Shown: positions 9,001 to 26,405, counted from the first letter of the stretch. The stretch is DNA of 64,000 nucleotides from Bacteroidaceae bacterium (GCA_045534785.1 JAZSKJ010000032.1:18777-82776); one strand, 5' to 3'. Notes: generated from the sequence alone by a model not told the origin. Translations and numbers: made by a program.

Positions 9001-11182
9001 TGATAGGATAGTCAAATTTAATGTCGGTCAATGCGGCCGATGTCATGCTGCCCACATTACCGCCGCAGAAGAACGATCCTATGTGTGCATAACGCGCGTC
9101 GTTGGCTGCAACATATGTGTTGGGGTATCCGGCATCAAAACTGTATTTAGGCATACATGAAACAGCTGCGCCCTCCATGTAAGAATTGAATATGTCTGAG
9201 TTGGTAAGATCCAGGTTGCTTATTGTCCTGTAGGTTTCAAGTGTGCCGTTTGTACTCTTGTCAACCATATCAATACCGTTACTGCCCAGGAATACATTGT
9301 CAATGGTAATATATTCACCAAGAACAAGCTTGATGTCGTCTGTTACTGTGGCGCTGTTACCTCCTCCGTAAACGGTATTTACGACTACAGGATTGGCCTG
9401 AGTTCCAGCCACACGGATGTATGATTGGGCGGTGTGGGGTCTGAAAGCATTCAGGGCAGCCACACTGGCGGTGTTCTGCGTATTGTCAAAATCTCCGTAA
9501 TAGAAATCACCATAGGTGGGGTCATCAGCCTTTGAAGATTTATCGGTATAGACGTAAGAACCGTTACCGCCACCATATACATTACCGCCTATTGAACTGC
9601 GTATGTCAATGGCATTACCTCCCAGTACATTACCTGATATATCATTACCGCCATAGACATTGTTTATGGTTCCGGCCGAAATACGTATATGTGCTGAATA
9701 ACCTGCCGGGAATCCGTAGGTGGCTCCGGGAGTTGTTGCCACTCCGTTAATCTTAGGAGTTACATTGGCACGACGGCATCCTCCATAAACGTTGTTTACG
9801 GTAAGGTTGGCGCTGTTAAGGTCAAGCATAAGACCGTCCCTATATGTCATGTCGCCTGCATCTCCGCCGGAGTAGAGGGCGTTGATGCTGGCTCTTTCCA
9901 GATGCCATTTTGGGTGGATGTACATTTCGGCCTGCTTGTTACCTCCGAATACGCGGTCAAACTGGTAAACCGGAGTGGCAGTGTAGTCAGCCGATGAACC
10001 GGCTGTTTCATCAAAGGTATATGCAGTCTTATCTACATCAATGTTGATGCCTAAGCTGCGCAACTTATCCTGCTTGAATTCATATCGGTCTGATGTGTTG
10101 TTGTCCAGACAGATTACGGTCTCCTGGGTTACCGTAGCCTTGTTACCGCCACCGTACACGTAACCGTAATTACCGCCCTTGAGCTCCAGATATGCGTAGC
10201 TTACCTCAGGCTTGTTGGTTACGGTAAAAGGAGAAGCTGGTGTGTCCCAGCGGTTCTCGGTGCTGTTCAAGACTCTGTCGGTAAGAGCATCTACCGTGTA
10301 ACCTCCTGTTGCAGGAGTATATTCATAGTCTCCGTTTCCACCGCCGAATACCTGGGCTACATAAATCCTGTTGGTGGAATTGGCCGGTATGGCACTGGAA
10401 TGCACAAAAGCGTTCCACTTCTCATCTATACCATAAGACTGGGTTGCGGCTTGACTCAGAATGGAGGGTGGTTCCAAACCACTGATCCAACTCCAGCTGT
10501 TAGTGAATGTCGGAATGGTGATTTCACCAGCTATATCATTACCTCCATATACTGCACCGATAATAAGGTCATTCGTGGCATTCGCACCGTCAATATTAAC
10601 AAAACTGTAGCCGTAAACATTAGCCACACGTGCGCCTCCGTATACATCGCCCTGAATATCACCTCCCTGAAGGGTTACGTTTGTGGTACCCATAAGGTCG
10701 GCCTTGTTACCGCCGCCGTATACGTTCTGTACCAGAGTACCTCCCTTAATGTCAACATGACTGTGTCCGAATACATATGCGCTCTCACCGTCGCCTGCGC
10801 CAAACAGACCGCCGTGAATGGTTCCATTCCAATCAGTGTGGCCTACAGAACCTCCGTTTACGGTTATCTGCGTGTTGCCGAATGTACGTCCGTTCTCACC
10901 GCCGCCGAATACTGTACGGACCGAACCGGCGTTTATCTCAATATTTGTAGTTGTACCGGTCTGGAGGTTATCTTCTATCTCAACGCTTGTCTTTGTTTCC
11001 TCGGCATCATCGACATAATGTGTACCTACATGGCCCTGCTTACCTCCGCCGTAGACATCACCTTTAATGGTTATTGTCACATCAGCAAATAGGGGGGTAA
11101 CCTGCAGGGATATGAACAGCAATACCGCTCCAATCATTCTGAGCGGTCGGCCATTTGTATGTTTACGGGAGAATATATTCAT
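1..11182 (-). CDS. Giant secreted beta-helix-repeat / GLUG-motif adhesin-like protein. Only the first 3,727 codons are present; the 3' end lies beyond the left edge of the window.
   Basis: ATG at 11182-11180. Hand translation gives MNIFSRKHTNGRPLRMIGAVLLFISLQVTPLFADVTITIKGDVYGGG, a signal peptide with no lipobox Cys. I read the frame (codon first positions with p mod 3 = 1) by eye to position 2 without meeting a stop. I translated it exactly at 11041-11182, 8551-8569 (KVFGGGL), 6184-6205 (GNVFGGGD), 1921-2098 and 4-58. The only minus-strand track ORFs inside this span (2059-2307, 2407-2613, 4954-5139) are in another frame. The plus-strand track ORFs here are shadows. It is absent from the track because no stop lies in the window. 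Function is inferred from repeat type only. Confidence 0.8.
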   Translation of the reverse strand, partial: MNIFSRKHTNGRPLRMIGAVLLFISLQVTPLFADVTITIKGDVYGGGKQGHVGTHYVDDAEETKTSVEIEDNLQTGTTTNIEINAGSVRTVFGGGENGRTFGNTQITVNGGSVGHTDWNGTIHGGLFGAGDGESAYVFGHSHVDIKGGTLVQNVYGGGNKADLMGTTNVTLQGGDIQGDVYGGARVANVYGYSFVNIDGANATNDLIIGAVYGGNDIAGEITIPTFTNSWSWISGLEPPSILSQAATQSYGIDEKWNAFVHSSAIPANSTNRIYVAQVFGGGNGDYEYTPATGGYTVDALTDRVLNSTENRWDTPASPFTVTNKPEVSYAYLELKGGNYGYVYGGGNKATVTQETVICLDNNTSDRYEFKQDKLRSLGINIDVDKTAYTFDETAGSSADYTATPVYQFDRVFGGNKQAEMYIHPKWHLERASINALYSGGDAGDMTYRDGLMLDLNSANLTVNNVYGGCRRANVTPKINGVATTPGATYGFPAGYSAHIRISAGTINNVYGGNDISGNVLGGNAIDIRSSIGGNVYGGGNGSYVYTDKSSKADDPTYGDFYYGDFDNTQNTASVAALNAFRPHTAQSYIRVAGTQANPVVVNTVYGGGNSATVTDDIKLVLGEYITIDNVFLGSNGIDMVDKSTNGTLETYRTISNLDLTNSDIFNSYMEGAAVSCMPKYSFDAGYPNTYVAANDARYAHIGSFFCGGNVGSMTSAALTDIKFDYPIIITHKLVGGCNDAFVKATENLNARHEGGFTATPARADELKIHLTVNGVIFANPDNASSGNQGNIFGGCFNSGIINGNVLIDLQQDIIPSNSTISSDMDTYLADQVNLFNTPFSVFGGGFGPEATVIGNTTINITSDEVGTGRALKVFGGGLRGGVTKNTTINMTGGEIGKIYGGGFEGAVNGNTSVYLSGGKVYDSFGGACNANISGYAQTFLGTAADGTAGSPEIKNNVFGGNDFGGSILGSNNFYNKVSEITKVYNYDSSHPENTYVTQASAYVEYISGKIGNYIFGGSCGNYNYSADSYELHKLAADDSYHNNNPYPYLASAFVNFMPNSTSSTTIAKVFGAGQGYAGATEADVKQDMMQDRSYVYVNIPDGSKKFTSTEIFGAGAFSGLGMGVNPNLTENPDFTVESVSAVIDLVHGELSTVYGGSYEEGITRRTVVNVPTGSTLIADELFGGSYGIRNSAPCDVYESNVNFNSSNAVIHEAIYGGNNNKRRTLYTRVNIWSPVYSEDGNPRNYTATIYGAGKGAGTWSQYTEINLEDGASVSEVYGGGNAGRVLNKESVAAWNTYTPDASENAGENTTATVYKSLGDFYTDNGLDNALVHPHTITVDDEEQVIKTNTNVNIKKGAYAARYCYGAGLGATATVSGTTFIGLFGGTVSRDIYAAGSSGPVMDEYGTKNFVAKTYAYIESGSVRNVYGGGWRGSVGKHDITTSSIANDIDGESNVIIGKLNVNGIYGGDPAISRNAYGGGEGGTIYGVAKVTVNNGHVGFRYEDNDYVEELNDQDVNDLDKSGNVFGGGYVINSLVDQTVVKMYGGTVRGNLYGGGEVGPIGRGNVSNTPATGGTQFINGPAHISKAGHTHVEMYGGHVMRNVFGGGRGIDSWGGDGRKFMSDEEISSSDWGCKGYVFGQTEVFIRGGEIGTTDNVAQGYGNVFGGGDLGFVYSGSGKKGEVATGNGFNSESSTEGYYYEHNGTTFKVDGDKNENKLTDDSRVIVEPYALVKADGGITIDGTTYAKGEYVPTDELDKLRNKNYDEAQWAKVSIDGIIIRNAIFAGGNVSAGSDVVYANTNTVLGNATAVLRDVYNRDLITIGTEHIGGIYGDGNLTLVDGYRELNITNYGTDYFSQPDKIDIEQYEQMTDREKAYYELKYLCVQDCTDKNGNPYEAQIDELTAEDYDKLFTGTAEQYHNEHYWVKKGFVSIYAGRLLNTIQRADFCGIFGSRMVLQGARDRVPEIVDYTDYTINRVGEVSLNQVASIAGDNTKEDKVHGNYFGIYSVVNHMGALTSDVDYYNDARQFDNQDEETYKPEFNGQTYENWKTKYYKDKRRRNNGASANKVALASGVYLELTTEESTKDNKIWGPITGVVELDLINVMTGLGGGYVYAKNIHGSRITTGLEQTILSQYNLPRTVGSTQAHQKAVTNKAFEYGTPTSSSELQTSGNFIHPQKQIVDDCYPDMNSYLDGGSPAHYWYIKGSIYVYDQYISAYTGSANAYAESVNIPLTITAQSHGKIQLKDVQPNLYAFYSNSGQTENLRDGSKKTVSVNNVTYKLNDTISYWDWYLLSAPEQNIFVPETYTTIANATIDGTPYSKGYTMLPSEYQALKTASANKTVYNVDAKTNVTFDYIFRPSNNLSHNTGFILTYDMANPIVWDKYHTRMNGTGKVNLKDYNDLTAEQKALYHEGPTYTVKTGQSGVYGQRQYEEGDIIPGAIHDTYESITNKPNNNQAIVQRAYVVTSKIVQGDKQLNPGAAVYRTQFTDTEWSSISSNVAEAYLCTSTLDLGDDEYIYYGELITDSRYNELVSVPDANYGDYFDVAWYCTTAGNYGGDYFETGKNYRGIETWSSMSEADRAHFEFNYDAFDVLIDPNYTKGNTTLYDSKEGNQEILYSQTQSIDYTATYNGTENLTYTNKANQNVTISPNRVLTREEYETIPNEQYHYSPIKVDQAGTYYIIKKGFSKGGSFYIAGKTITEEFYNGLGEQKSNIDVVTFTAAQAGVQNNTYYYCRDSYEVNENGMGHAVTSVAGSSISVTKTSGQTVPVGFILNADGYNDLPNLQKGNFSVQGTAPIGTSTLYVTRESDIFNLSKGKVITVMYQYDYEESDESGQHIEPISEQHIVNIHINFKSGVPFIDELSAPSIVLPSTTVGLKIPSITPGAYEVLGSGWEMFTTPEDADQHKNGIPYTNNQTPMYWYQDGYLVAYYTKTYLGKTYSNAVPFKVANYHRMDKVMSSTHVETTLNPDTHEPESHTVNDYMYLDEAVKEGKRNPKIYIKDASELAQFNEFFNRIKSTASNSSVSNLSNGQRLDFILDGDINLTSGWTPVGDASDCFEGTLHGDGHTISGLDHSLFGSLCGSVYNLGVTGTFTGPGIADVGSGKAVNCWVLTDGTVSSSTYPIIGYSGENDEAKVINSYYYNDYNSATLANRDTHKKDLKAFMDGEVAYNLNLFYLNKRYYDNLYKDATEAPANTTPYTAWNKADINVANAEPTTAYYPNNPTNYVENYVEQRYYNPDFIYAKGSIPEDPDIRDKGTEPYSPIWPDDYIYFGQNLTYDIVNGGGEHDVHPAVIIKSSGLLTNGISDNRVFRTPAYYQSKEKSSVYFNRYAALKDTYDNIDIHKSMTAIDFTQNNDTEWSLGTNNNAFFTPITDFDGLSSYITDGLTQNMLVYFTDNMDQNNVLLNYYHKDADLIFGFDDGYKNVRPVEQRAIDDIKGHLVRLTDNGYVSVNNHFLVDRQDFNAPISYKIPTNSYIWYQRVPSTYVESMDAGWETVSLPFTAKYVTTHQKGEITHFYQGSKTGHEYWLRNLSSVSTTTENEVTTTTAMFSAPEKDTNGGKTVNNTFLWDYYYHWNSESADNAGPDVNDDEYQKNYYKIAREYSDYPLYAAGTPYLIGFPGKRFYEFDLSGEWTVSYTATEPNGVPAQLRKQYITFASADEGTTILVTDDEYAAAARNATDGYTYMPTYQTKTLAGATTYLLSQAGDKFQNDEANSTVTTVPFRTYITSAA
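1921..2098 (-). other. GLUG-like motif segment within the giant ORF
   Basis: Exact hand translation: QRLDFILDGDINLTSGWTPVGDASDCFEGTLHGDGHTISGLDHSLFGSLCGSVYNLGVTG. The F-x-G-T-L-x-G-x-G-H-T-I-S-G-L ... LFG ... N-L-G-V pattern matches my memory of GLUG-motif modules in IgA-protease-type and large bacterial surface proteins. Not HMM-verified. Confidence 0.45.
5330..11060 (-). repeat. Degenerate protein-level repeats with a [VILM][YF]G[GA]G turn motif (parallel beta-helix-like). About 1,900 aa of the giant ORF; boundaries approximate.
   Basis: I saw roughly 40 motif copies by eye (VYGGGK, VFGGGE, VYGGGN, IYGGGF, LYGGGE and similar), spaced about 20-60 aa apart. On the plus strand they appear as recurring gccgcc / accgcc / tccgcc followed by (a/g)ta or gaa. 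They produce the PPPY strings in shadow ORFs 6471-6668, 6702-6908 and 10818-11018. The last recognisable copy is about 5330-5360 (DFCGIFGS). Confidence 0.6.
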
Positions 11183-11199
11183 ATCGGATAGTCAGAGAT

Positions 11200-12357
11200 T
11201 TATTCAATGGGTAGTTTTGTGTCTAAGTCATCATCACTGAGCTGGTACAGATATGACGGCACTACATTGATCTTGACGGCATAACTGGTTCCAGCTCTGG
11301 GTCTTCCGCTGCCGGTAGGCAATATCTTGCCGTTTCTGGCTGTCTGGTCTTTTCTTACCAGACGGTCTTTGTAATTCTCATCGGTAAGAGGATCAGTGCC
11401 GGTATCACCTGTGTAAACGTTATAGGTTACCTCAAGTTCTACGGGCAGGTCTGTCTTGGGCAGATAGCAGAAACTGCCGGCTGTCTGATAGATATAGCTT
11501 TCCACTTCGTTACCATTCCAGGTTACAGTGTTTGATGCATTCAGAACAATGGAATCATTTGGTAAAGGCAGGCTCACCTCAAGATTCTTTGATGTGCAAT
11601 CACCCCAGTTAGGATTAGGGTTGGCACCGAAAGTCAGGCTCATGCTTGAGCTGCCTTGGCTTGAAACCATCTTGATTCCGGTTATCACTACGGTGCGCAG
11701 CTTGCTGTATTTCTCGTGCAGCGTGAAACTCAGGTCAACCTTTGAGTAGAGATGGTTCATGGCCAGCAGTACCTTATCATTCGGTATGTTGTTGGAGATC
11801 TGGCCCAGGTTGAAGGTTCCGGCTACAGGAGTGGGGTCATTGTAGACACCGTTCTGAGCCACAGATCTGGCTGCTGCAATTGATATGGTGGGGTCACCCA
11901 GGGTTACAATATCAATTGGGTTTACATTGAGTGTAAAACTGTTGCCAACTTTAGTAAATGTGCCTCTGGTACTGCTTATACCTCCGGGATGGAAGGCAAA
12001 CATATAGTAACTCTTGCCGCCTTCGGCCTCAACGCTTGAGTACCATTTGCCACCCGAACGGCGGAACTCACCTTCCTTAAGAGTTGTGCCTGATGTGTGT
12101 TCCTGAGCCCAGGCATAAATTAGCTCGCCATCCTGGGGAGTGTAAAGACTGTAACCATCAATAAGGGCTCTGGTGCTGATCTCCATGCCGGCCTGACGGA
12201 AAACGGGAAGAATCTTGAACGGGCCAACACTGGTCTCGTTGTAGAGATTATCCTTCTCAGTTTCAGTCTGGCATGAGACTAAGCATATAAACAGCAACAG
12301 CAGAGTGTTGACAACTCTGCTTATTGAGTGGTGTTTATTATAGCCCTTTTTTATCAT
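11200..12357 (-). CDS. Fimbrillin-like (type V pilin family) lipoprotein, divergent member immediately upstream of the giant gene
   Basis: 385-aa ORF. It has a signal peptide plus Cys (LFICLVSCQ), a candidate maturation site EISTRALI, and the family motif MNHLYSKVDLSF. Its C-terminus differs from the rest of the array (INVVPSYLYQLSDDDLDTKLPIE). The gap to the giant ORF start is 17 bp. Confidence 0.75.
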   Translation of the reverse strand: MIKKGYNKHHSISRVVNTLLLLFICLVSCQTETEKDNLYNETSVGPFKILPVFRQAGMEISTRALIDGYSLYTPQDGELIYAWAQEHTSGTTLKEGEFRRSGGKWYSSVEAEGGKSYYMFAFHPGGISSTRGTFTKVGNSFTLNVNPIDIVTLGDPTISIAAARSVAQNGVYNDPTPVAGTFNLGQISNNIPNDKVLLAMNHLYSKVDLSFTLHEKYSKLRTVVITGIKMVSSQGSSSMSLTFGANPNPNWGDCTSKNLEVSLPLPNDSIVLNASNTVTWNGNEVESYIYQTAGSFCYLPKTDLPVELEVTYNVYTGDTGTDPLTDENYKDRLVRKDQTARNGKILPTGSGRPRAGTSYAVKINVVPSYLYQLSDDDLDTKLPIE

Positions 12358-12395
12358 TTTATTTTTATTTCAAATTGTAAATATAAATAAAATAT

Positions 12396-13553
12396 TTACC
12401 AATTGTGCACATTGGTAGGAATTTCTCCACCATCAGCCCAATTTTTTACCTGTACGGACTCGAGTTCAATACCGCTGGAGGCAGTAAATTTGAGTGTAAT
12501 CAGGTAAGAATAGCCGGGAAGTGTCTGGCCTGGATATGTGGCTGTCACCTCATTCTGGTTATTCTTAACTTGGGTTGTAAGGGTAACTCCATGAGCTGTT
12601 CCTTGAAGTGGAGAATTCTCTATGGAATAGTCTGCCTGGAGGTCTAACCCGTTCCACAGATTACATGGAACTGTAAACCACGAGCATAATGTCTGGAAAT
12701 TCTCAGGCTCGGAATCGGGATCTTCATCAAACCATGTTTCTTCGGGCAGGATGACAGGATCTTCCATCAACTCCTTACTTAATCCTTTCTGGACAGGACT
12801 GCTGTACTGATTGGTTGTGTTGTTCTCACTGAAATTTCTGGTAACTACAGATTTACCGTCTGCCTTGAGTACAATAGGATTGTCTTCGTCAGGTGACTTG
12901 AACGTAAGTTGATTTACTGTTACCTTAGCTTTGGCACCAACATAGTACGCCCTAACCTGCACGCGCGACAAAATATGCTCGAACTGGAAGTTTACGGTAC
13001 CGCCGGCAAATACCAGGGTTGCATCGTCCTCTGTTGACTTGTATTTGCCGCTCCTGGCTGCTACCAGAAGGTCTGTGCCTGTGGATGTTGGCTGCCAGTA
13101 GGGAATGTTGTTGATTGTAAGAACTTTTCCGGTCTCGCTCACAAAGGGGGTTCCGTTATTGGGGTCTTCGTTGGGAAGATAGGGCCAATAGGCTGCAAAC
13201 TGATAGGTTGCATTGGGGTTGGAGTCCCAGTATCTGCGGGGTGTGTAAGACCAGGTGGTGCTCTCGGTGTTCTGGTCGGGGTATACCGGAATGTTGTTGA
13301 ACTGGCGGTACGGAGTCTTGTTGGGGATGGTCTTGTAACCGTATACTCCGAATCCGGTGCTGTTGGTTATACTCAGGCTTATAAGCGAGGCTTTATTGGT
13401 AACAAGAGCCTTGGTGCCTACCGATGTGGTACCAATCTGTATCTCGTCATACATATATGCCTTGTCTGTACGGCTGCAGGAGGATATGATTCCTCCTGTG
13501 AGCACGGCCAGCAATATGACGTGTAACTGTACTTTAAACCTAAGTCTTAGCAT
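12396..13553 (-). CDS. Fimbrillin-like (type V pilin family) lipoprotein
   Basis: 385-aa ORF. Lipobox GGIISSCS. Candidate maturation site uses Lys (TSVGTKALV). Family motif FEHILSRVQVRAYY. C-terminus ends IELESVQVKNWADGGEIPTNVHNW. Confidence 0.8.
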   Translation of the reverse strand: MLRLRFKVQLHVILLAVLTGGIISSCSRTDKAYMYDEIQIGTTSVGTKALVTNKASLISLSITNSTGFGVYGYKTIPNKTPYRQFNNIPVYPDQNTESTTWSYTPRRYWDSNPNATYQFAAYWPYLPNEDPNNGTPFVSETGKVLTINNIPYWQPTSTGTDLLVAARSGKYKSTEDDATLVFAGGTVNFQFEHILSRVQVRAYYVGAKAKVTVNQLTFKSPDEDNPIVLKADGKSVVTRNFSENNTTNQYSSPVQKGLSKELMEDPVILPEETWFDEDPDSEPENFQTLCSWFTVPCNLWNGLDLQADYSIENSPLQGTAHGVTLTTQVKNNQNEVTATYPGQTLPGYSYLITLKFTASSGIELESVQVKNWADGGEIPTNVHNW

Positions 13554-13576
13554 GTTTATAGTTGTAAGCTTATTTC

Positions 13577-15118
13577 TTATCTCAAAACATCGTAGTCAAT
13601 GGAGTATATCTCCTCCCATTCCGTTACTTTTGCGGTGAACTCAATGAATGCGTCCTCCTCTTCGCGGGCAGGTGAGATTACGCCTGTATCGGGGTCTTTC
13701 TCAAGCTGAACCCAACCGTCATCCTCGTCTATATCGCCGTCACCGTCAGTGTCTATGTGGATCAGGATAACATCCTTGCCGTCGGGGTTGTCGGGATTGC
13801 CGTCACTGGGATCCTTCTCGTTGTCTCCGCCGGGCTCCTGCTGGGTTTCATTATCACCGTCCACATTATCTATATGTCCGTCGCCGTCGCGGTCTATACC
13901 GCCTTCCAGCTTGCCGTCATTGTCAATATCCTCCCATACTACCGGATAGGTTACCCATGTATCAGGAATTCCGTCACCATCGGTGTCCTCCCAAACCTTT
14001 ATCTGGTCGGGCTCATCGGGGTTGTACTTCATTACGCCCTCGCTGGGGGTATCATCTGTCTTGGTTATGGTATCGCCGGTTACGGGGTCCACTATTATAC
14101 TTCCGTCACCATCGGCATCCCAAACGCGGGTTGAGCGGGTGGGGTTGAAAGCCAGGGTGTAGTTGTACTTGTAGTTAGGCTCCCATTTTGATATTATGCT
14201 GTTTTTTGATCCTGATGTTCCGGTTATGCCGGCCAGACGGATTCCTTTCTTGGTGAATGTCTGTGATGTGCCATCCTTGTAAGCTACGTGGAATATGGCA
14301 TCCAAGGTTACATCTACGGGCGATGATGCTGTGCTGAATAGTGACTGCGGTATCATCAGGTAGTCCTTGTAGATGGCTGTGGATGTGGTGCTGAGCAGCG
14401 TGTTGGTTACAGTGGGTATCTGCATCAGGCCTGACTGGTTGCTCCAGGCGCCTACTGCCATTTCCTGACTCCATCCGGTCTGCTGGTAGCTTCCGGTGTT
14501 CTTTACGTTGTTGAACTTGATGCTGGTAAGCGTTATGTTGTCCACACCGTCGGTGTTCATTCCACTGCCTATCTTGGCGTACACGTTAACATTACTCAGT
14601 ATGTGGTGGAAATACATCTGTACGGTGTTGAACGGTGATACGTTAAGCCTTTCACTGATCATCAGGTCTGTCTGCTGGTCAGGATCATTGGGCGTAGTAT
14701 ATGTACCTATGGTGATGTAACGGTTATCATCCTCACTCATGGTGTAGAGTGTCTTGGAGTAGGGGAATACTCCGTAGAACATATAGGTTGAGCCTATGTT
14801 CCAGAGCTTCTTGTTATCATAGGTCCAGACGCTGTCGGATGATACGTATCTTACATCCTGGTTGTTGAATATTACATCTATGGTACCGTCAGTGTTCTGG
14901 ATGCCCCATACGGCCATAGTGTCGCCCACTACGAATCCGCTGTTACCGCTGGTCTTGGCGGCACGGGTCATCTTGTTTACAATGTTTCCAAATTCAATGT
15001 AAGCATTCTCGTGGGTTGCATAAGGATCTATCTCATGCAGGATTCCGGACTGCTGGCATGACGACAGAAGTGCCACGCCTGCTATTATGCTCAGTTTAAT
15101 CTTGGTCATTGTGTTCAT
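13577..15118 (-). CDS. Fimbrillin-like lipoprotein with a C-proximal Asp-rich DxDxDG (thrombospondin type-3-like) calcium-binding-repeat insert
   Basis: 513-aa ORF. Lipobox ALLSSCQ, site VNKMTRAAK, motif FHHILSNVNVYAK. After the pilin body (...KWEPNYKYNYTLAFNP) comes about 155 aa of acidic repeats. The family-type terminal strand FIEFTAKVTEWEE follows. Confidence 0.85.
   Translation of the reverse strand: MNTMTKIKLSIIAGVALLSSCQQSGILHEIDPYATHENAYIEFGNIVNKMTRAAKTSGNSGFVVGDTMAVWGIQNTDGTIDVIFNNQDVRYVSSDSVWTYDNKKLWNIGSTYMFYGVFPYSKTLYTMSEDDNRYITIGTYTTPNDPDQQTDLMISERLNVSPFNTVQMYFHHILSNVNVYAKIGSGMNTDGVDNITLTSIKFNNVKNTGSYQQTGWSQEMAVGAWSNQSGLMQIPTVTNTLLSTTSTAIYKDYLMIPQSLFSTASSPVDVTLDAIFHVAYKDGTSQTFTKKGIRLAGITGTSGSKNSIISKWEPNYKYNYTLAFNPTRSTRVWDADGDGSIIVDPVTGDTITKTDDTPSEGVMKYNPDEPDQIKVWEDTDGDGIPDTWVTYPVVWEDIDNDGKLEGGIDRDGDGHIDNVDGDNETQQEPGGDNEKDPSDGNPDNPDGKDVILIHIDTDGDGDIDEDDGWVQLEKDPDTGVISPAREEEDAFIEFTAKVTEWEEIYSIDYDVLR
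13655..14125 (-). repeat. Asp-rich DxDxDG repeat insert (TSP3-like / EF-hand-like Ca-binding loops), residues about 332-488 of the 513-aa pilin-like protein
   Basis: Repeat copies seen: WDADGDGSIIVD, WEDTDGDGIPDTW, WEDIDNDGKLEGGIDRDGDGHIDNVDGDNE, IDTDGDGDIDEDDGW. The plus-strand shadow ORFs here (13749-13949, 13757-14134) come from the same low-complexity coding. Confidence 0.7.
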
Positions 15119-15144
15119 AGTTATATGTGGTTTCCGGGCAGTTA

Positions 15145-16932
15145 TTACTTAATCAGATAAGATGCTTCATACTCATCCTCCCAGTCAGTTACTGTGGCCG
15201 AGAATTCAATGATGGTCTTATAGTATACTATCTCCTCCTCAGGTACCGACGGATCCTTTTCAAGCTCACGCCATATGGTGTTGCCTTCATCATCCTTGTC
15301 CCTGATCAGGATTACATCGTAGTCATTGGGATTGCCGTTGTAATCAACGCCATCGCCATCATAGTTATCGTTCTCTGTAGCTGCGCCGTCGCCGTCCTTA
15401 TCGGCAATACCTTCCAGCTTACCGTCACCGTCAATGTCCTTCCATACTACAGGTATATCGCCCTTGCCGTCGTGGTCGGTATCAATAAAGTACTCACCCT
15501 TATCATCGGTTACTACCCATGCGGTATCGTTCTTATATCCGTCTATACCACCGTCATAGTCAATGAAAGGCTCGGTGGGGTAGTCGGGATCATTCGGGTC
15601 TGACGGAACATCGGGCTTGGTCTTGGGGCGCTCCAGTTCTGTGTCAACTATATCATCGCCGTCTGTATCCATCCATATAACATCGGGATTGCCGTCACCG
15701 TCAGTATCATCGGGCTGGCCGTCCTGGTCGCGGTCGGGCAGAGCCTCTTCCTTACCGTCGCCGTCAATATCATCCCATATGATGGGGTAATCGGGGGTAT
15801 CGTCAATATCCTCGTCAATCCAGTACTCATCGGTAATTCCGTCACCGTCATTGTCTATCTCAATGATGTTGACAACAGGGGTATAGATGCTGTCAGGATT
15901 TGTCAGCTCATCCTGGTCATGGTCCGGGTTGATGTTGGGCAGGTAATGACCGCCGTCGGGTGTGATTGACGGGTCTACTGATACTATGTAGTTGTAGCGG
16001 TAGTTAGGCTCCCACTTGGCAATAGTAACCTTGCTTTCGGGGGTTGACACCTTATTGCCTACAATCTTGTTCAAGGCAACCGAGCGCTCAAATATTGACT
16101 CGGTATCGTCACTGTAAACCAGCTTGAAGGTGATGCTTACCTTGGCGTTGTTGTTAATCTCCTGGGGAAGCAGCAGCAGGTCTGTAGCTAGGTTGGCTGC
16201 CTTGGTGCTACCCATTGTATATGTGGCGCTCTTAACTTCGGGCATATCATAGACCGATGTGTTATCGGCAGTCCAGGCGCCGGTGAATACGCTGTTGCTG
16301 TTCCAGCCTGTCTGGGCAAATGAGCCCTTGCTGTACAGTCCGGTTACGTCAAAGCTAACCACATCCACACTCTTTATGCCTACAGTGTCAAATTCGGATG
16401 ATGACTTGAAGTAGAAGCTTACGTTACTCAGTATATGGCTGAATTCAAAGTCTACCACGTTAAAGGGCTGATGATCTTTTATCTGCTTGGCTATCATCAG
16501 GTCAATCTGGTCACTATCCTTATCGGCTACAGTAAAGTCTGTTATGCTGAAAGTGCGGTTCTCAAAGTCAAAGCTGTTGGCTGCAGCATAGGGATATACT
16601 GCGTAGAAGTCATAAGTTGAGTTCTTCTCCCAATACTTTACGGGGGAGTATGACCATATCTCCTGACCGGTGTTGGTTACAAGCTGGTTGTTGAAAAGCT
16701 TGCCGTATTCGCCGTTCATGTTCTGTAAGCCATAGACCTCAATCTCATCGCCGCTTACAAATGTGGCTCCCACACCTCTTGATGCACGGGTAAGGCCACT
16801 CACGTAGTTGGTAAAATTAATCTGTGTGCTGTGGTCACGGATAGGGTCAACGCTGTTGAGTACTTTACTGTCTTCGCAAGCGCTCAGCAGCATTATTGCT
16901 CCTGTAAGGATTATCAGACTCCTCTTTTTCAT
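15145..16932 (-). CDS. Fimbrillin-like lipoprotein with a longer Asp-rich DxDxDG calcium-binding-repeat insert
   Basis: 595-aa ORF. Lipobox MLLSACE, site VSGLTRASR, motif FSHILSNVSFYFK. The pilin body ends ...KWEPNYRYNYIVSVDP. About 245 aa of acidic repeats follow, then the terminal strand IIEFSATVTDWEDEYE. Confidence 0.85.
   Translation of the reverse strand: MKKRSLIILTGAIMLLSACEDSKVLNSVDPIRDHSTQINFTNYVSGLTRASRGVGATFVSGDEIEVYGLQNMNGEYGKLFNNQLVTNTGQEIWSYSPVKYWEKNSTYDFYAVYPYAAANSFDFENRTFSITDFTVADKDSDQIDLMIAKQIKDHQPFNVVDFEFSHILSNVSFYFKSSSEFDTVGIKSVDVVSFDVTGLYSKGSFAQTGWNSNSVFTGAWTADNTSVYDMPEVKSATYTMGSTKAANLATDLLLLPQEINNNAKVSITFKLVYSDDTESIFERSVALNKIVGNKVSTPESKVTIAKWEPNYRYNYIVSVDPSITPDGGHYLPNINPDHDQDELTNPDSIYTPVVNIIEIDNDGDGITDEYWIDEDIDDTPDYPIIWDDIDGDGKEEALPDRDQDGQPDDTDGDGNPDVIWMDTDGDDIVDTELERPKTKPDVPSDPNDPDYPTEPFIDYDGGIDGYKNDTAWVVTDDKGEYFIDTDHDGKGDIPVVWKDIDGDGKLEGIADKDGDGAATENDNYDGDGVDYNGNPNDYDVILIRDKDDEGNTIWRELEKDPSVPEEEIVYYKTIIEFSATVTDWEDEYEASYLIK
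15229..15969 (-). repeat. Asp-rich DxDxDG repeat insert, residues about 322-568 of the 595-aa pilin-like protein
   Basis: Repeat copies seen: IEIDNDGDGITDEYW, WDDIDGDGKEEALPDRDQDGQPDDTDGDGNPDVIWMDTDGDDIVD, IDTDHDGKGDIPVVWKDIDGDGKLEGIADKDGDGAATENDNYDGDGVDYNGNPND. The module W-x-D-I-D-G/N-D-G-K-L/E-E is shared with the neighbouring gene. Confidence 0.7.
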
Positions 16933-16965
16933 TTTTTGATTGTATTTTATTTTGTTTGTTTTCGT

Positions 16966-18075
16966 TTATAACTTATTGCTCTTGCCTGGCTCCACAGATC
17001 CTTCCCATTCATTGTTATCCCATATCTTGGCGTCGGCATCGAATGTTATTATGTCTGGACCTATCATAAGGTGCAGGATATAGCTGTTGGCGCACCTGAA
17101 AGCACTAAAGGCCTCCTTGAGGCCTATACGTGTATCAAAATGCTCTATGCGTCCACCTGGGTAGTGCATAGAGTAGTCAACAAGTATCATCTGGGTGCTG
17201 TCCACCTGCTGCGGCAAAAGCAGTGACTCTATCACGCAACTTCCGGTTGAGTCAATCAGGGCTCCGTTGGCGCTGCACAGAGCGTAGGTGGGATTAATGG
17301 TGTCAATCTGCCACTCAGTTACGGACTCATCGGCCTCAATACCTACCACAGGACTGTGGTCAAGTATCTGAGTAAAGTCTCCCTTGCTGTAGAACCGGCC
17401 TATGCTCAGGCTGTCTATCACAACTTGGATTCCGCCCTCACTAATGGTCTTGTTAAGGGTTACCATTACAATAAGCTTGGCCATGATGTGCTGCATATTG
17501 AAGGTAACCAGGCTACCTATCTGTTTCGGGTTAACCTTCTTGCCCTCACGGTCAACGAGCCAATCTACATCTGTCACACTGCCGAAAGTGCCACGGGGAT
17601 ACGGCTCGGGACCCGCACTCATGGTGTTGCTGCCCTCCAGTACCACATTATTTATATTAATGTGGCCGGTGGTCTCATCGATAGAGACCGATGCACCCGG
17701 TACTGTTGCAGAATTGGGTGCATAAGCATAGAATCTGTAAGAACTGCCCTTCTCCCAATAGCGTGCGGGAGAGTAGGTCCAATCCTCATGGTCCGGATCA
17801 TAGCTGACCAGATTGTCATTAAACAGACGAATCTCGGGTCTGCCGCTTGCTGTCTGCCATCCCCAGACTCCCATGGTATTAGTGTGCTGGCTAAGCAGGC
17901 TGAGAGCGCGTGTTCTGACAGGATTATCTATTACACCGTTGCCGAAACTGATAGCCAGACTCTCATTGCCACCCTCATCATTTAGATGGCTTACAAAACT
18001 TTCGTACTGACATCCTGCCAGCAGCATTACCGCTGCCAGCAACCCCAGTACTCTATGTCTTGCTACATTCAGCAT
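16966..18075 (-). CDS. Fimbrillin-like (type V pilin family) lipoprotein
   Basis: 369-aa ORF. Lipobox MLLAGCQ, site NPVRTRALS, motif MQHIMAKLIVMV, terminal strand IITFDADAKIWDNNEW. Confidence 0.85.
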   Translation of the reverse strand: MLNVARHRVLGLLAAVMLLAGCQYESFVSHLNDEGGNESLAISFGNGVIDNPVRTRALSLLSQHTNTMGVWGWQTASGRPEIRLFNDNLVSYDPDHEDWTYSPARYWEKGSSYRFYAYAPNSATVPGASVSIDETTGHININNVVLEGSNTMSAGPEPYPRGTFGSVTDVDWLVDREGKKVNPKQIGSLVTFNMQHIMAKLIVMVTLNKTISEGGIQVVIDSLSIGRFYSKGDFTQILDHSPVVGIEADESVTEWQIDTINPTYALCSANGALIDSTGSCVIESLLLPQQVDSTQMILVDYSMHYPGGRIEHFDTRIGLKEAFSAFRCANSYILHLMIGPDIITFDADAKIWDNNEWEGSVEPGKSNKL

Positions 18076-18095
18076 TCTTGTTTTTTAATCCTTTG

Positions 18096-18103
18096 CAAAA
18101 TTA
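18096..18103 (-). promoter_or_regulatory. Candidate Bacteroides-type -7 promoter box (TAATTTTG = TAnnTTTG) ahead of the 16966-18075 gene
   Basis: Plus-strand caaaatta at 18096-18103, about 20 nt upstream of the ATG at 18075. It sits in a 193-bp gap that also contains a hairpin. An 8-mer match alone is weak evidence. Confidence 0.3.
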
Positions 18104-18210
18104 AAAAATACACACACTCTCGCTCTCACTCTGCTGCCCCACTCATTGCAAACTGCATTTTTCCTTTTATAAATATCATTGGTAATATAGCGCTCACGCT
18201 CTCTTGGTGA

Positions 18211-18236
18211 CCATCGGGGCGATCAAACCCCGGTGG
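18211..18236 (-). terminator. Intergenic hairpin downstream of the 18269-19534 gene
   Basis: ccatcgggg / ccccggtgg form a 9-bp stem with an 8-nt loop. One position is T:G on the plus strand, which is an A:C mismatch in the minus-strand RNA. There is no clear U-tract. Confidence 0.35.
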
Positions 18237-18268
18237 CCTATTTAAAGAAAAGAGTTAGTCTGATGGGA

Positions 18269-19534
18269 TTACTGTACAACAACAGGTACATCATTCTTTG
18301 TAGCCCACTCATATACATCAGCATCAAAGTTGATTGCTGCAGGTGCAAGAGTGATTTTCAAAGTGTTCTGCCATCCTTCGCAGAAATCTACTGCTGTTGT
18401 GGCATCAGCATTGAAAACGTCGGCAAGGTTGTAGTAGTATTTATAGCTATCATGCTTAGTATAAACATTATTTTCAGTCTTGCCAATCTCATATTCAATT
18501 ACAATGTATGGTGCACTATCAGCTGTTGCATTGCTACCATTAAGGTAAAGATATGAATCAAGTCCAGTTACACTTTCATTTACCAGTACAGTCTTGCTGT
18601 AAGCAACGCTTTGTGGAATAGCCAGTCCCTCATATACATATTGATAATATGTATTCTCTGTGGTTTCAGTTGAGGTTATTAGCAAACCGGATGCATTCTC
18701 ATAACCAACGCCAGAGGTGAATGTGGCAGGTGTTGATGCTGCTGTCCAACGTGTAACTGTTCCACCTGAAAGGGTTGTGCCAGAAGCCCGTGACTCATCA
18801 AAAGAACCATTGCTTGTCATATTAAACACCTTAACAGATTTCAGATATACGGTATAGTCATCAAGTATAGTAGCTTTACGTACACCTATGTTAAGACGTG
18901 ATAGAATATGATTGAAACTGAGGTTTACGGGGGTATTAGTATAATTCTTATAATCCTCAATATCTGTTGAAATCATAAGATCCTCAGTTGTTAGTGCAGC
19001 TGTCAAAACCTTATTGGTAACAATAGCGGTTGCAGGAGTACCTGTTACGCTGTTATAACCTGTAATTGAGAAATCTGCAATTGAAACCTTCTTGGTAGAG
19101 GAGTTCCAGCTCCAATCATCTCTGCTGGGTGAAGCTGCGTAGAATTTGTAAACAGTTGCAGACTTATCCCAGAAACGAACAGGTGTGTAATACCAGCCTT
19201 CTGTGACAGCAGGGCTAGCAGTATTATCAGCATCCTTATGCTCAACCAACTGACCAGGATATGTATAGGTGTTGTTTGCACTTTCAACAGCTCCTAATAC
19301 AGGAGTTTCAGTACCGCTTACAACTTTATAACCCCATACTTTAAATGTATTGTTGTAAGTTTCAAGATTACCATTGATATTGGCAGATGAGTTCTCTGCA
19401 CGAGTCTGCTTATTGGTAATAGTGCTGAAACCTATTTCAATCTGCTCCTCATGGATGTCTGAGCGCATCTTGTCTTCTGAGCAACCTGTCAATACTAATA
19501 CGGTTGCAGCTATAAGCAATAATTTTTTATTCAT
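18269..19534 (-). CDS. Fimbrillin-like lipoprotein, FCEGWQNTL subfamily
   Basis: 421-aa ORF. Lipobox LVLTGCS, site TNKQTRAEN, motif FNHILSRLNIGVRK. C-terminal block YYYNLADVFNADATTAVDFCEGWQNTLKITLAPAAINFDADVYEW. Confidence 0.9.
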   Translation of the reverse strand: MNKKLLLIAATVLVLTGCSEDKMRSDIHEEQIEIGFSTITNKQTRAENSSANINGNLETYNNTFKVWGYKVVSGTETPVLGAVESANNTYTYPGQLVEHKDADNTASPAVTEGWYYTPVRFWDKSATVYKFYAASPSRDDWSWNSSTKKVSIADFSITGYNSVTGTPATAIVTNKVLTAALTTEDLMISTDIEDYKNYTNTPVNLSFNHILSRLNIGVRKATILDDYTVYLKSVKVFNMTSNGSFDESRASGTTLSGGTVTRWTAASTPATFTSGVGYENASGLLITSTETTENTYYQYVYEGLAIPQSVAYSKTVLVNESVTGLDSYLYLNGSNATADSAPYIVIEYEIGKTENNVYTKHDSYKYYYNLADVFNADATTAVDFCEGWQNTLKITLAPAAINFDADVYEWATKNDVPVVVQ

Positions 19535-19569
19535 GATTGTATTTCTTTATTATTTCGATAAGAAAAACA

Positions 19570-20679
19570 TTACTTTACTTCAACATTTTGATTACCGCCA
19601 TTTTCATCAAAATTGCAAATACTTACTACATCAAACTTGATCTCATTAGGTTTGATGTCTAATGTATAAGTTGTATAAGAATCTGTACCCCAAGTCTGAG
19701 TTGAAGGAACAATTGCAACCTGGTCTGTGAAGGTCTCTTCATAAGTATTTGGAGCTGCAACGCCGTCATTATATGTATATGTTACAGTGAATGTCAAACC
19801 AGCCTCGGTAACGTTTGCAGCGGGAGCTGTGTAAGCAATTTGCTGTGGAACCATAATATACCAGTCAGTAAGAGTGGTAGCTGTGGCAGATGCACCACAT
19901 GTGAGTTCAACGGATGTATTCCCAGTGCCAGTACCAACTAATGCGACGCTGCCGGCTGATGCAGTAGGAATATTCCACTCATCGTAAACTATACTACCAG
20001 GAGCTCCTGTATAAGTCATATTTTGAGTGAAATTACCAACTCCATTATTCCAACCTGTCATAGTAAGGCTATTTACTGTTACTGTACCAGAAGTGAGTGT
20101 GCTCTTAAGAGCAAACTGAACCTTAGCCATGATGTGATGGAAATCAATATCTACTGGTTCATTTGTAGAGCCGGTATGTGCACTTCCAAGTTCACCTTTT
20201 GCTCCGTCACGATCAATCAGATAGTCGTCAGATGCTGTACTTTTATTAGATTTTGCACCTGTGATTGTGATGCGACCAAAATTAGCAGCAGTCGGATCGC
20301 CTTGAATTGCATAAGTTGCACCATCTGTTGGGGCATTAGGAGCTACTGCATAGAAGTTATACGTTGCATTCTTGTCCCAGAAACGTAATCCGTCATATTT
20401 CCAGGCACTATTTGTGGCATCCCAATATACATTCTTACCAGCGAAAATGTCAGGATTTTCTTTTGTGTCAAAATCATCCAAAGATTTATAGCCATATACT
20501 ACGAATCCACCTTCTGTCTTCAAATTATCAATGCTTCCAATATGAGCACGTGTAATCTTATTAATGGACTGTCTGAATGAAATAGGCGCTTCTTGAGTGC
20601 TAATTTCATGAATGATGTCGTTTCCTCCACATGCAGTTAATAATGCAACTGCTGCGATCATCAAATAACTCTTTTTCAT
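19570..20679 (-). CDS. Fimbrillin-like (type V pilin family) lipoprotein
   Basis: 369-aa ORF. Lipobox ALLTACG, site INKITRAHI, motif FHHIMAKVQFALK, terminal strand IKFDVVSICNFDE. Confidence 0.85.
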   Translation of the reverse strand: MKKSYLMIAAVALLTACGGNDIIHEISTQEAPISFRQSINKITRAHIGSIDNLKTEGGFVVYGYKSLDDFDTKENPDIFAGKNVYWDATNSAWKYDGLRFWDKNATYNFYAVAPNAPTDGATYAIQGDPTAANFGRITITGAKSNKSTASDDYLIDRDGAKGELGSAHTGSTNEPVDIDFHHIMAKVQFALKSTLTSGTVTVNSLTMTGWNNGVGNFTQNMTYTGAPGSIVYDEWNIPTASAGSVALVGTGTGNTSVELTCGASATATTLTDWYIMVPQQIAYTAPAANVTEAGLTFTVTYTYNDGVAAPNTYEETFTDQVAIVPSTQTWGTDSYTTYTLDIKPNEIKFDVVSICNFDENGGNQNVEVK

Positions 20680-20726
20680 AATTCTCTTTTCTTTAAGTTT
20701 TTAGTTAATAATAAGTTTTCTAATTA

Positions 20727-20759
20727 GTGACCGGTAGGAGTATCACCTCCTGCCGGCCT
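20727..20759 (-). terminator. 33-nt hairpin element downstream of the 20776-22161 gene, identical to the copy at 22210-22242
   Basis: Sequence gtgaccggtaggagtatcacctcctgccggcct. The stem ccggtaggag / ctcctgccgg is 10 bp with a 6-nt loop. One T:G on the plus strand becomes A:C in minus-strand RNA. No U-tract. Confidence 0.4.
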
Positions 20760-20775
20760 GTATTATGAAATAATA

Positions 20776-22161
20776 TTATTGTATTGTGAATTCTCCATCA
20801 GTATTTTCATCTCCTGTTGGATACTTCTCATCCCATTGGTAAACAACAGGATTAAATTTGATGGCGGAGGGAGCAAGTGTTATATTAAGAGTGTTCTGCC
20901 AACCTTCACAGAAATCAACATCATTATCTTTATTAGCTCCATCTCCGTTGAATACGTCTGCAAGATTGAAATAATAAACGTAGCCGTCAATCTTAGAATA
21001 GTTATTATTTTCGGTAACACCAATTTCATAATCTATTACAATATAAGGATCGCTCCAAGTATCATTGCCTGAGCTTACAGCATTGTAACCATCAATCCTT
21101 AGATAAGAAGACAAACCAGCAACATCCTCATTGGGCATTACAGTCTTAGCATATCCAACTGTTTGAGGCATTATGAGCCCCTCATATACATATTGATATT
21201 TTCCATCTGATACCTTCTGGGTAATTTCTTGCGCAGTTGTAGGCTCAAACTTCATGTTGCCTGGAGTGAATTTATCAGTGTTGCCTGTGGCTTTGGTCCA
21301 ACGCGCCTGAGTCCCAGCCTTTAATTGGGCATCAGTCAGAGTTGTGGCTTCATCAAAAGAACCAAGACTCTTCATGTTGTAAATCTTAATAGATTTGAGG
21401 TTGACAGTATAATCTGCTAAGTCATTACTCTTGCGAATGCCGATATTGAGGCGTGACAAAATATGATTGAATACTAACTGAACTCCATTATTATTGGGAG
21501 CAGTGGAATAAGTATAATCCTTGTAATCTAATATGTCAGACGCAATCATCAAATCTTCTGTATCCTCAGTTGCCATTATCTTGGCCGCATCAATTGTGGT
21601 ATTTGTAGGATCAGAGGCCATGTTAGTGCCACTAACACGGAAATCGGCGAGTGAGATTGTCTTGGGAGATGTATTATCTGTGATAGCCCAAACTTTTGTC
21701 TCTCTGCTCATTGTTTCGCCTTCATACTTTGCACTCTGGGGATTGAACGGAGCAGCTGCATAGAAATCATAATGTGTGGCTGTCTTGTCCCAGAATCTAA
21801 CAGGACTGTAGGCCCAGTGACCTATTAAAGAGGCCTCAGTTGATTGGTATTCAACTTTTTCACCAGGATATAGAAATCCATCAGTCGCATTTCCTGTGAA
21901 ACCAAAAACAGGAGTTCTTGCAAAAGTGCTTTCTCCGTTTTTGATATATTTATTACCCCAAAGTCTGAAAGTCTTGTTATAAGACTGTAGCTCATTTTTT
22001 TCCGTTGCATTTGAGTTGTCAGCACGAGTTTGCTTGCTTGTAAAAGTTGTGAAACTAATAGCGCTATTGTCCTGCTGTTTTATTTCCTTGAAGGTTTCAT
22101 TACCAGCGCAACCATTTAACACCAATGCTGCAGCAGTGATTATTATCAAACTCTTTTTCAT
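20776..22161 (-). CDS. Fimbrillin-like lipoprotein, FCEGWQNTL subfamily
   Basis: 461-aa ORF. Lipobox LVLNGCA, site TSKQTRADN, motif FNHILSRLNIGIRK. C-terminal block YYFNLADVFNGDGANKDNDVDFCEGWQNTLNITLAPSAIKFNPVVYQW. Confidence 0.9.
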   Translation of the reverse strand: MKKSLIIITAAALVLNGCAGNETFKEIKQQDNSAISFTTFTSKQTRADNSNATEKNELQSYNKTFRLWGNKYIKNGESTFARTPVFGFTGNATDGFLYPGEKVEYQSTEASLIGHWAYSPVRFWDKTATHYDFYAAAPFNPQSAKYEGETMSRETKVWAITDNTSPKTISLADFRVSGTNMASDPTNTTIDAAKIMATEDTEDLMIASDILDYKDYTYSTAPNNNGVQLVFNHILSRLNIGIRKSNDLADYTVNLKSIKIYNMKSLGSFDEATTLTDAQLKAGTQARWTKATGNTDKFTPGNMKFEPTTAQEITQKVSDGKYQYVYEGLIMPQTVGYAKTVMPNEDVAGLSSYLRIDGYNAVSSGNDTWSDPYIVIDYEIGVTENNNYSKIDGYVYYFNLADVFNGDGANKDNDVDFCEGWQNTLNITLAPSAIKFNPVVYQWDEKYPTGDENTDGEFTIQ

Positions 22162-22209
22162 AATTCTCTTTTCTTTAAATTGTTAGATAATAGTTCTTTT
22201 TTTTGCTTG

Positions 22210-22242
22210 GTGACCGGTAGGAGTATCACCTCCTGCCGGCCT
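22210..22242 (-). terminator. 33-nt hairpin element downstream of the 22253-23563 gene, identical to the copy at 20727-20759
   Basis: Same 33-nt string as at 20727-20759. On the coding strand it is followed by an A8 tract (T8 at 22197-22204 on the plus strand) and then the shared leader ttaaagaaaagagaattATG. Confidence 0.4.
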
Positions 22243-22252
22243 ATTGCTTGTA

Positions 22253-23563: not shown

Positions 23564-23581
23564 ATTCTCTGCTGTTTTTTA

Positions 23582-24889: not shown

Positions 24890-24939
24890 TTGTCTAAACT
24901 CTTTTCTTTAAATTTTCTCCTTATTTGTATTATAAGGTC

Positions 24940-26094: not shown

Positions 26095-26145
26095 AAGTCC
26101 TTTAATTTGTTTTTTTATTTGTTGGTTCTTTATTTTCTCTCTTTA

Positions 26146-26349: not shown

Positions 26350-26405
26350 ACTTATTATATTTTAATACTTATTTTAAATTTTGTTCAAAAATTGTAGAAT
26401 CTTCA

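Follow-up and report, generated by a model that had tools for sequence, protein, structure and literature searches.

Two type V pilin-like lipoproteins of a Bacteroidaceae bacterium with an Asp-rich, calcium-loop-type module inserted before their C-terminal strands

The DNA analyzed here, which we call the window, is a stretch of 64,000 nucleotides from a Bacteroidaceae bacterium (GCA_045534785.1, JAZSKJ010000032.1:18777-82776), an uncultured member of the Bacteroidales from the rumen. It contains an array of 12 paralogous lipoprotein genes followed by a giant open reading frame (ORF), and two adjacent genes of that array, A and B, are the subject of this report. Their products are type V (Mfa-like) pilin-like lipoproteins in which a long, acidic insert separates the body of the pilin from its last two strands. 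The system is a known one, and what is new is its architecture, in which a novel domain has been inserted into a type V pilin. A first-pass annotation, made from the sequence alone, pointed out that such an arrangement is not known to have been described for type V pilins, and we found none in the literature we searched.

When scanned without its insert, A (residues 1-330) matched the Pfam family Mfa_like_1 (PF13149) with an E value of 2.6e-22 and 80.5 bits, and residues 48-321 of B matched it with an E value of 8.5e-31 and 108.3 bits, against a cut-off of 27 bits. An hmmscan of the whole A protein returned zero Pfam families, because the acidic insert triggers the composition correction of HMMER. 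The same suppression explains why many orthologues of A carry "-" as their precomputed Pfam annotation. Both proteins have a lipobox, "...LLSSC" in A and "...LLSAC" in B, which predicts lipidation, and all 12 paralogues and 44 orthologue sequences share its cysteine (Cys21 in A). Arg52 of A, which follows the first strand, is also invariant in the 44 sequences, and the motif to which it belongs, "I.F....K.TRA," is found in 11 of the 12 paralogues. Type V pilins mature as lipoproteins and are then processed by a protease (PMC13655056), and the lipobox Cys together with the Arg after the first strand is consistent with this route. An AlphaFold2 model of full-length A, built from the 44-sequence alignment, had a predicted local distance difference test score (pLDDT) of 78.9 and a predicted template modeling score (pTM) of 0.75, with the body mostly above 90. 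Foldseek matched the body model to the Bacteroides pilin-like crystal structures 4k4k, 3sy6, 3ufi, 3t2l, and 3up6, and also to FimA (6jzk and 6kmf), Mfa3 (5nf4), Mfa4 (5dhm), and Mfa2 (5nfi), with E values of 5e-10 to 1e-4 overall. A search of PDB sequences with B as the query gave zero matches. A and B are paralogues with about 40% identity. Orthologues of A form more than 100 full-length clusters of nearly constant length, 503 to 538 amino acids (aa), with 41 to 100% identity, and the 133 homologues of B span 355 to 914 aa.

The point of insertion is sharply defined. As the first-pass annotation had noted, both bodies end with KWEPNY(K/R)YNY; KWEPNYKYNY is at residues 311-320 of A, and KWEPNYRYNY is at residues 306-315 of B. 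The conserved terminal strand appears as FIEFTAKVTEWEE at residues 491-503 of A and as IIEFSATVTDWED at residues 574-586 of B. In an alignment of the 12 paralogues, the pattern "..Y.L.I.P..I.FDA.V..W" is unbroken in the 10 other proteins. In A and B, the last body strand and IEF(T/S)A.V..W are separated exactly after the conserved N/D-P, which places the insert between the body and the conserved C-terminal strand, where it had been reported. The two inserts are indeed there, with lengths of about 164 and 252 aa rather than the 155 and 245 aa first given, and the paralogues that lack one number 10, not 9. The coordinates first given for the feature, 13655..15969, run from the end of the A insert to the start of the B insert. 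Homology of the FIEF/IIEF strand to the C-terminal strands of the paralogues, on which the original proposal depended, is borne out by the alignment and by a paralogue profile, in which the A/B-type terminal strand lines up with the C-terminal strand of 4k4k, a Bacteroides pilin-like protein of solved structure. Residues I492, F494, A496, V498, and W501 of A are invariant in orthologues, and the final alternating-hydrophobic strand after "I.F.A.V..W" is conserved too. Mfa1 has a Pro-containing loop about 24 residues before its C terminus, and from this loop its two C-terminal donor strands swing outward and replace strands of the next subunit (PMC13655056). Paralogues without an insert have a Pro followed by about 23 residues to the C terminus. 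Because they share this layout with Mfa1, the insert appears to occupy the equivalent of the Mfa1 donor-strand hinge. By the same token, the C-terminal strands of A would be the counterpart of type V donor strands, and their donation is putative.

The inserts are unusual in composition, with 22 to 24% Asp, no Cys, and a net charge of about -40 in A and -63 in B. We compared the number of D-x-[DN]-x-[DN]-G sites with 20,000 composition-preserving shuffles. A has 5 sites against 0.33 in the shuffles (P = 5e-5), and B has 7 against 0.52 (P < 5e-5). The calcium-loop-type pattern is present and strongly enriched, by about 15-fold. The longer form DxDxDGxx[DE] is fitted by 4 of the 5 sites in A and by 6 of the 7 in B. 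A shared motif picked out at first reading, W-x-D-I-D-(G/N)-D-G-K-(L/E)-E, occurs once in A and twice in B. Among 43 orthologues of A, the mean pairwise identity is higher in the insert (60.6%) than in the body (50.0%). The DRDGDGHID site is retained in 42 of the 43, individual loop sites are retained in 27 to 42, and the alignment has invariant Trp, Tyr, Pro, and Asp positions within the insert. A DNA repeat search found only short stretches, located at DGDG codons (the best, A versus B, is 44 nt at 86% identity), and there is no recent duplication. Modeled by itself with AlphaFold2, which we ran without ions, the A insert gave a mean pLDDT of 81.8 and a pTM of 0.78. About one-third of the model is short beta-strands and about 67% is coil or loops, with no helix of four or more residues. 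The module is about 120 to 165 aa long and rich in loops; a few short strands form around conserved Trp, Tyr, and Pro positions, and DxDxDG(xx[DE]) loops connect these strands. At least 16 structural contexts are known in which the Dx[DN]xDG motif binds Ca2+ in a nearly identical manner (Rigden et al. 2011, PMC3123361). Since those contexts are unrelated, calcium binding is a reasonable expectation here, and the motifs make it likely that the module binds Ca2+.

Does the insert belong to a known family? Pfam and NCBIfam scans of the whole proteins and of the whole inserts gave zero matches for the inserts. To bypass the composition filter, we rescanned the inserts as 45- to 70-aa segments. The TSP_3, TSP3_bac, FG-GAP, and EF-hand profiles touched only loop cores of 10 to 20 residues, with 6 to 15 bits against cut-offs of 22 to 28; the best E values were 0.021 for TSP_3, 0.055 for TSP3_bac, 0.19 for FG-GAP_3, and 0.18 for EF-hand_6. 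The thrombospondin type 3, EF-hand-like, or dockerin-like assignment raised by the first-pass annotation did not survive these scans. The thrombospondin type 3 repeat (PF02412 and its bacterial form PF18884) reached at best 14.9 and 13.8 bits where 25 are required, and the inserts have no Cys. Dockerin_1 (PF00404) gave nothing at an E value of <=10 on the inserts or on the segments, and the model is free of helices. EF-hand_1, _5, _6, and _8 scored 6 to 12 bits against 25 to 28, covering the loop only, and the flanking helices are absent from the model. Of the FG-GAP blade profiles, FG-GAP scored 8.5 bits and FG-GAP_3 scored 12.8 against 22 to 27, and no propeller was found among the Foldseek matches. 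The SdrD B-repeat (PF17210) had zero Pfam matches, and hhalign gave it a probability of 17% over 25 columns. The insert profile aligned to an FG-GAP protein with a probability of 45%, a likeness at the level of the motif only. Searching PDB sequences with the insert profile produced nothing meaningful (the best E value was 0.14 over 28 residues), and Foldseek comparison of the insert model with PDB and BFVD folds also produced nothing (best E value of >1, TM of <=0.22). By the literature we searched, the insert is a previously undescribed, narrowly distributed extracellular domain family.

We then considered how the insert varies among relatives. Homologues of A and B were pooled, and in 209 complete proteins the insert length was taken as the distance from the body profile to the C-terminal profile. 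Lengths fell into classes of about 0 aa (2 proteins), 100 to 199 aa (127), 220 to 299 aa (69), 360 to 399 aa (5), and 480 to 579 aa (6), which correspond to about 0, 1, 2, 3, and 4 units. The motif count tracks insert length (r = 0.85), and the long inserts are tandem units with Pro-rich linkers between them. The relatives without an insert, P0244 and P0245, are 52% identical to B and read "...YNYIISVKPDENNAIEFSAQVEDW" in this region. A mere spacer had been one of the first suggestions for the insert. Its conservation, confident model, and tandem repetition describe a module instead.

Since a word-indexed search with just the insert as the query yielded no more than 13 fragments and told us little, we replaced it with an exhaustive profile search. 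Among 1.84 billion representatives, the insert profile found 34 clusters, nearly all of them pilins of the A/B architecture, and the weakest matches, in the tail of the search, were FG-GAP and SdrD_B repeat proteins. The module is thus rare, and it occurs mostly in rumen Bacteroidales and in others from anaerobic gut or digesters. Two of the clusters are giant, non-pilin surface proteins, and each has a complete module: P0133 (3,578 aa; L009:10001-20737) at residues 1132-1293 and P0134 (1,667 aa) at residues 1062-1220. These proteins contain Flg_new, Cthe_2159, GLUG, and Calx-beta domains. The neighbors of P0133 are further giant proteins, and its locus has zero pilin genes. When the module is cut out in silico, a weak Flg_new_2 match (E value of about 0.03) spans the junction, which suggests that in both proteins a small B-repeat domain surrounds the module, with a different insertion point in each. 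Furthermore, the Mfa_like_1 pilin P0159 (497 aa) has one core module at residues ~190-265, within the body and before the "HIL" motif region. The insert is not tied to the donor-strand position; it is found elsewhere in a pilin and in proteins that are not pilins. The insert-profile search did not find it in the giant ORF of the window itself. Taken together, we are confident that this is a real, conserved, and portable module that in A and B sits at the hinge position.

The genomic setting is also conserved. We compared the window with eight related loci from a species-level genome collection, all in metagenome-assembled genomes of uncultured "Prevotellaceae/Bacteroidaceae" from the rumen or gut of cattle, sheep, buffalo, and reindeer. 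The gene order in the eight is a DUF5119 gene, variable paralogues, a g16966-like gene, B where present, A, a g12396-like gene, a g11200-like gene, and the giant gene. A is found in all eight, and B is found in two. This order is kept in those loci (L001-L008) and in L012 (L012:8063-12742; GCA_024697785.1, JAILEU010000024.1), a divergent version of the operon whose giant protein is about 44% identical. At the B and A positions, L012 encodes a 625-aa pilin with two units and a 913-aa pilin with four. The giant gene follows the array in all related loci, with 35 to 64% identity over the first 1,000 aa. In the window, it starts near 11182-11191, exceeds 3,727 codons, and continues past the window start. 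Its product has a signal peptide without a lipobox Cys, is rich in Gly, Thr, Asn, and Tyr, and has N-terminal "VYGGG/VFGGG" repeats; no Pfam domain was found in any 1,000-aa piece. The last protein of the array, g11200, is without the I.FDA.V..W strand and without a Pfam match, and it ends with "...VVPSYLYQLSDDDLDTKLPIE." Mfa4 has no donor strands (PMC13655056), and by analogy g11200 may be a tip-type subunit without them. In every case, the genes for the insert-bearing pilins directly precede two small pilin-like genes and the giant gene, and these pilins are therefore most likely accessory or adaptor subunits near the tip and not the main stalk. The conserved position would fit the idea of an adaptor toward the tip.

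Features of the array and of genes A and B are listed in Table 1. The Pfam threshold for Mfa_like_1 ("fimbrillin-like") is reached by 6 of the 12 array proteins, and the first gene matches DUF5119. The DUF5119 gene is the best conserved of the operon, with 68 to 79% identity among related loci versus 28 to 70% for the others, and its product could be an anchor or assembly factor. In L012, a DUF3575 gene lies upstream of the DUF5119 gene; there is none at the corresponding place in the window. The remainder of the window contains a divergent AraC-type regulator, V-ATPase genes, and a polysaccharide utilization locus (PUL) with SusC/SusD, GH127, and GH97. Between the V-ATPase genes and the PUL lies an ORF of 1,304 aa (36981..40895, + strand) without a Pfam match at an E value of <=1e-5.

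Table 1. Features of genes A and B and of the surrounding array (positions counted from the first nucleotide of the window)
Feature	Position	Strand	Basis
Gene A, 10th of array, 513 aa, one module copy	13577..15118	-	ORF
A, pilin body, residues 51-327, ends in KWEPNYKYNYTLAFNP	14138..14968	-	Mfa_like_1, AlphaFold2, Foldseek
A, insert, residues 327-490, ~164 aa, 5 DxDxDG loops	13649..14140	-	Alignment, motifs
A, C-terminal strands, residues 491-513: FIEFTAKVTEW + YSIDYDVLR	13580..13648	-	Paralogue alignment
Gene B, 9th of array, 595 aa, two module copies	15145..16932	-	ORF
B, insert, residues 322-573, ~252 aa, 7 DxDxDG loops	15214..15969	-	Alignment, motifs, insert profile
B, module core 1, residues ~354-439	15616..15873	-	Insert-profile match
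B, module core 2, residues ~480-562	15247..15495	-	Insert-profile match
B, C-terminal strands, residues 574-595: IIEFSATVTDW + YEASYLIK	15148..15213	-	Paralogue alignment
Whole array, 12 paralogous lipoprotein genes	11200..27644	-	ORFs, Pfam, alignment
DUF5119 gene, first of array, 412 aa	26406..27644	-	Pfam match DUF5119
Pilin-like lipoprotein gene 2	24940..26094	-	ORF + paralogue alignment
Pilin-like lipoprotein gene 3	23582..24889	-	ORF + paralogue alignment
Pilin-like lipoprotein gene 4	22253..23563	-	ORF + paralogue alignment
Pilin-like lipoprotein gene 5	20776..22161	-	ORF + paralogue alignment
Pilin-like lipoprotein gene 6	19570..20679	-	ORF + paralogue alignment
Pilin-like lipoprotein gene 7	18269..19534	-	ORF + paralogue alignment
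Pilin-like lipoprotein gene 8 (g16966)	16966..18075	-	ORF + paralogue alignment
Pilin-like lipoprotein gene 11 (g12396)	12396..13553	-	ORF + paralogue alignment
Pilin-like lipoprotein gene 12, last of array (g11200)	11200..12357	-	ORF + paralogue alignment
Giant ORF downstream of array, putative tip/adhesin protein	2..11191	-	ORF, runs off window

How might such a module work in a pilus? The insert interrupts the hairpin that links the last body strand to the C-terminal pair. By analogy with Mfa1 and FimA, this is the hinge where donor strands would swing out to occupy the groove of the adjacent subunit on the tip side. Before assembly, in the prepilin, the module would bulge from the membrane-distal pole of its host subunit; once the strands have been exchanged, it would come to lie at the junction between that subunit and the next tip-ward one. 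The strong negative charge and the loop-rich model indicate that the module probably needs Ca2+ to fold. If so, it would fold only after export, in calcium-rich surroundings, and rumen fluid is such an environment. Most likely, the module folds only once its five (A) or seven (B) loops hold Ca2+, outside the cell. At the junction it would then form a projection or spacer that is scaffolded by calcium, rigid, and strongly acidic and whose length is set by a copy number of 0 to 4, and A and B would be accessory or adaptor subunits close to the tip. From the comparisons above, we infer calcium binding, calcium-dependent folding, strand donation, and the spacer role. We put the probability of the full explanation, a calcium-loop module at the hinge that serves as a projection or spacer near the tip, at roughly 40%. 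The role of the module as a projection or spacer at the junction is one that we hold only tentatively. A bolder version, in which the module has a new calcium-dependent fold that it adopts only on arrival at the cell surface, where it makes a rigid joint of 0 to 4 units between type V subunits, is doubtful.

Several points weigh against this explanation. The terminal strands are poorly placed in the full A model, with a pLDDT of about 35 to 50, and the ion-free model of the insert is about two-thirds coil. The confidence of the insert model may partly reflect strong conservation, and the absence of Foldseek matches could reflect an irregular model and not a new fold. Calcium binding is argued from the logic of the motif, with every calcium-binding family below threshold. 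Polymerization of A and B is presumed by analogy, and many Bacteroidales fimbrillin-like lipoproteins are uncharacterized. Gene order is the whole of the argument for an adaptor role. Finally, the presence of the module in loops of other host domains suggests that its ends lie close together, and this favors a decoration or collar that projects to the side over a long in-line spacer or tether.

The chief competitor is a role of the module in adhesion or ligand binding. It might, for instance, recognize plant cell wall or microbial glycans through calcium from the distal pole of the subunit, in which case additional copies would raise avidity and not length. The joint or tether is thus one of two live readings. 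The module has moved between pilins and giant adhesin-like proteins that contain Flg_new, Cthe_2159, and Calx-beta domains; like many functional insert domains, it occupies loops of its hosts; and it is conserved above the pilin body. Moreover, the bacterium degrades polysaccharides, and the window includes a PUL. Against this, we found zero likeness to a lectin or carbohydrate-binding module in either sequence or fold. The module has an extreme negative charge, is about 67% coil, and shows no evident pocket, and tandem units with Pro-rich linkers look more like the extender regions of adhesins. An adhesive role is on balance the less likely of the two. Less likely again, A and B could be stand-alone surface lipoproteins in which the C-terminal strand completes the fold of its own subunit and the insert decorates the surface. 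The homologous terminal strand does belong to the monomer fold in solved 4k4k, assembly of A and B is a prediction, and the module tolerates another insertion site in P0159. Against this, A and B retain everything that polymerizing type V pilins use, namely the lipobox, the first strand with its invariant Arg, and both conserved C-terminal strands, and their genes belong to a conserved array of 10 to 12 pilin genes with a giant terminal gene, as in fim/mfa operons.

Two further explanations, both very improbable, deny that the insert is a new folded module. A disordered, low-complexity acidic linker, acting as an entropic spring or charge brush, would account for the high content of Asp, Gly, and Pro, the suppression of whole-protein matches by the HMMER bias filter, and the two-thirds of the model that is coil. 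Yet conservation is position specific and above that of the folded body, with hydrophobic and aromatic residues invariant; insert lengths are quantized and not continuous; the model has a pLDDT of 82 and a pTM of 0.78; and the module has moved intact to unrelated proteins, in which it can be aligned end to end. The alternative that the inserts are divergent thrombospondin type 3, dockerin, EF-hand, FG-GAP blade, or SdrD B-repeats draws on the weak loop-level matches to TSP_3, TSP3_bac, FG-GAP_3, and EF-hand_6, on the FG-GAP and SdrD_B proteins in the tail of the profile search, and on the hhalign probability of 45% to an FG-GAP protein. Those matches are far under the gathering thresholds and cover 10 to 25 residues. 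The inserts lack the Cys of eukaryotic thrombospondin type 3 repeats and the helices of EF-hands and dockerins, Foldseek returned no propeller or beta-sandwich, and the profile had no sequence match in the PDB.

Type V pili are abundant in gut, oral, and rumen Bacteroidia, yet they are understood almost entirely from two systems of P. gingivalis. If the calcium-loop module does sit at a working donor-strand hinge, then the hinge before the donor strands can take whole domains, a clade of accessory pilins would vary the inserted units from 0 to 4, and an uncatalogued calcium-loop module would be common to pilins and giant adhesin-like proteins. In the bolder version, this would be the first pilus with a domain built into that hinge, and the fiber would be segmented, with calcium-dependent spacing or stiffness near the giant tip protein. 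The natural variants with 0, 1, 2, and 4 units are ready-made constructs for probing the geometric freedom of donor-strand exchange, and the module is a new domain family for databases. We regard the significance as moderate, given the narrow distribution and a function that is putative.

Comparison with known systems shows how far the likeness goes. Like the type V pilins of P. gingivalis, FimA and Mfa1-4, A and B have a lipoprotein precursor, a conserved Arg after the first strand, a pair of beta-sandwich domains, and two C-terminal strands beyond a Pro-containing hinge. The array resembles fim/mfa-type systems in being a multigene operon with a very large protein last. The difference is at the hinge: none of the described type V pilins has a domain there, whereas A/B-type pilins have one to four modules of 120 to 165 aa. 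The only Ca2+ site of Mfa1 is in a C-terminal domain loop, in contrast to the multiloop modules found here at the hinge. The module recalls the "calcium wire" of thrombospondin type 3 (PMC3123361) in having Asp-rich DxDxDGxxD loops in series and few elements of regular secondary structure, and its fold would likewise be expected to need bound Ca2+. Unlike thrombospondin type 3, it has no cysteines, has conserved Trp-containing strands between the loops, and gave no Foldseek match. Calcium-rigidified extenders of surface proteins, such as SdrD B-repeats, the BIg repeats of RTX adhesins, and FG-GAP blades, are also tandem, copy-variable extracellular units with DxDxDG-type loops. In its motif "vvWeDiDgDGk.e.Gi," the module is similar to the beginning of SdrD_B and to the loop of the FG-GAP blade, at the motif level (17% and 45% in hhalign). 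Those repeats, however, fold as beta-sandwiches or propeller blades and follow one another along a stalk, while the module lies inside a pilin hairpin. A parallel in design comes from the sortase pili of Gram-positive bacteria, whose tip pilins RrgA and GBS104 have a vWA domain nested in an Ig-like domain. There, too, an accessory subunit has an extra functional domain nested in a loop of the pilin fold, but the pilus is unrelated and covalent, and the inserted vWA domain is a known adhesive fold, not a calcium-loop module.

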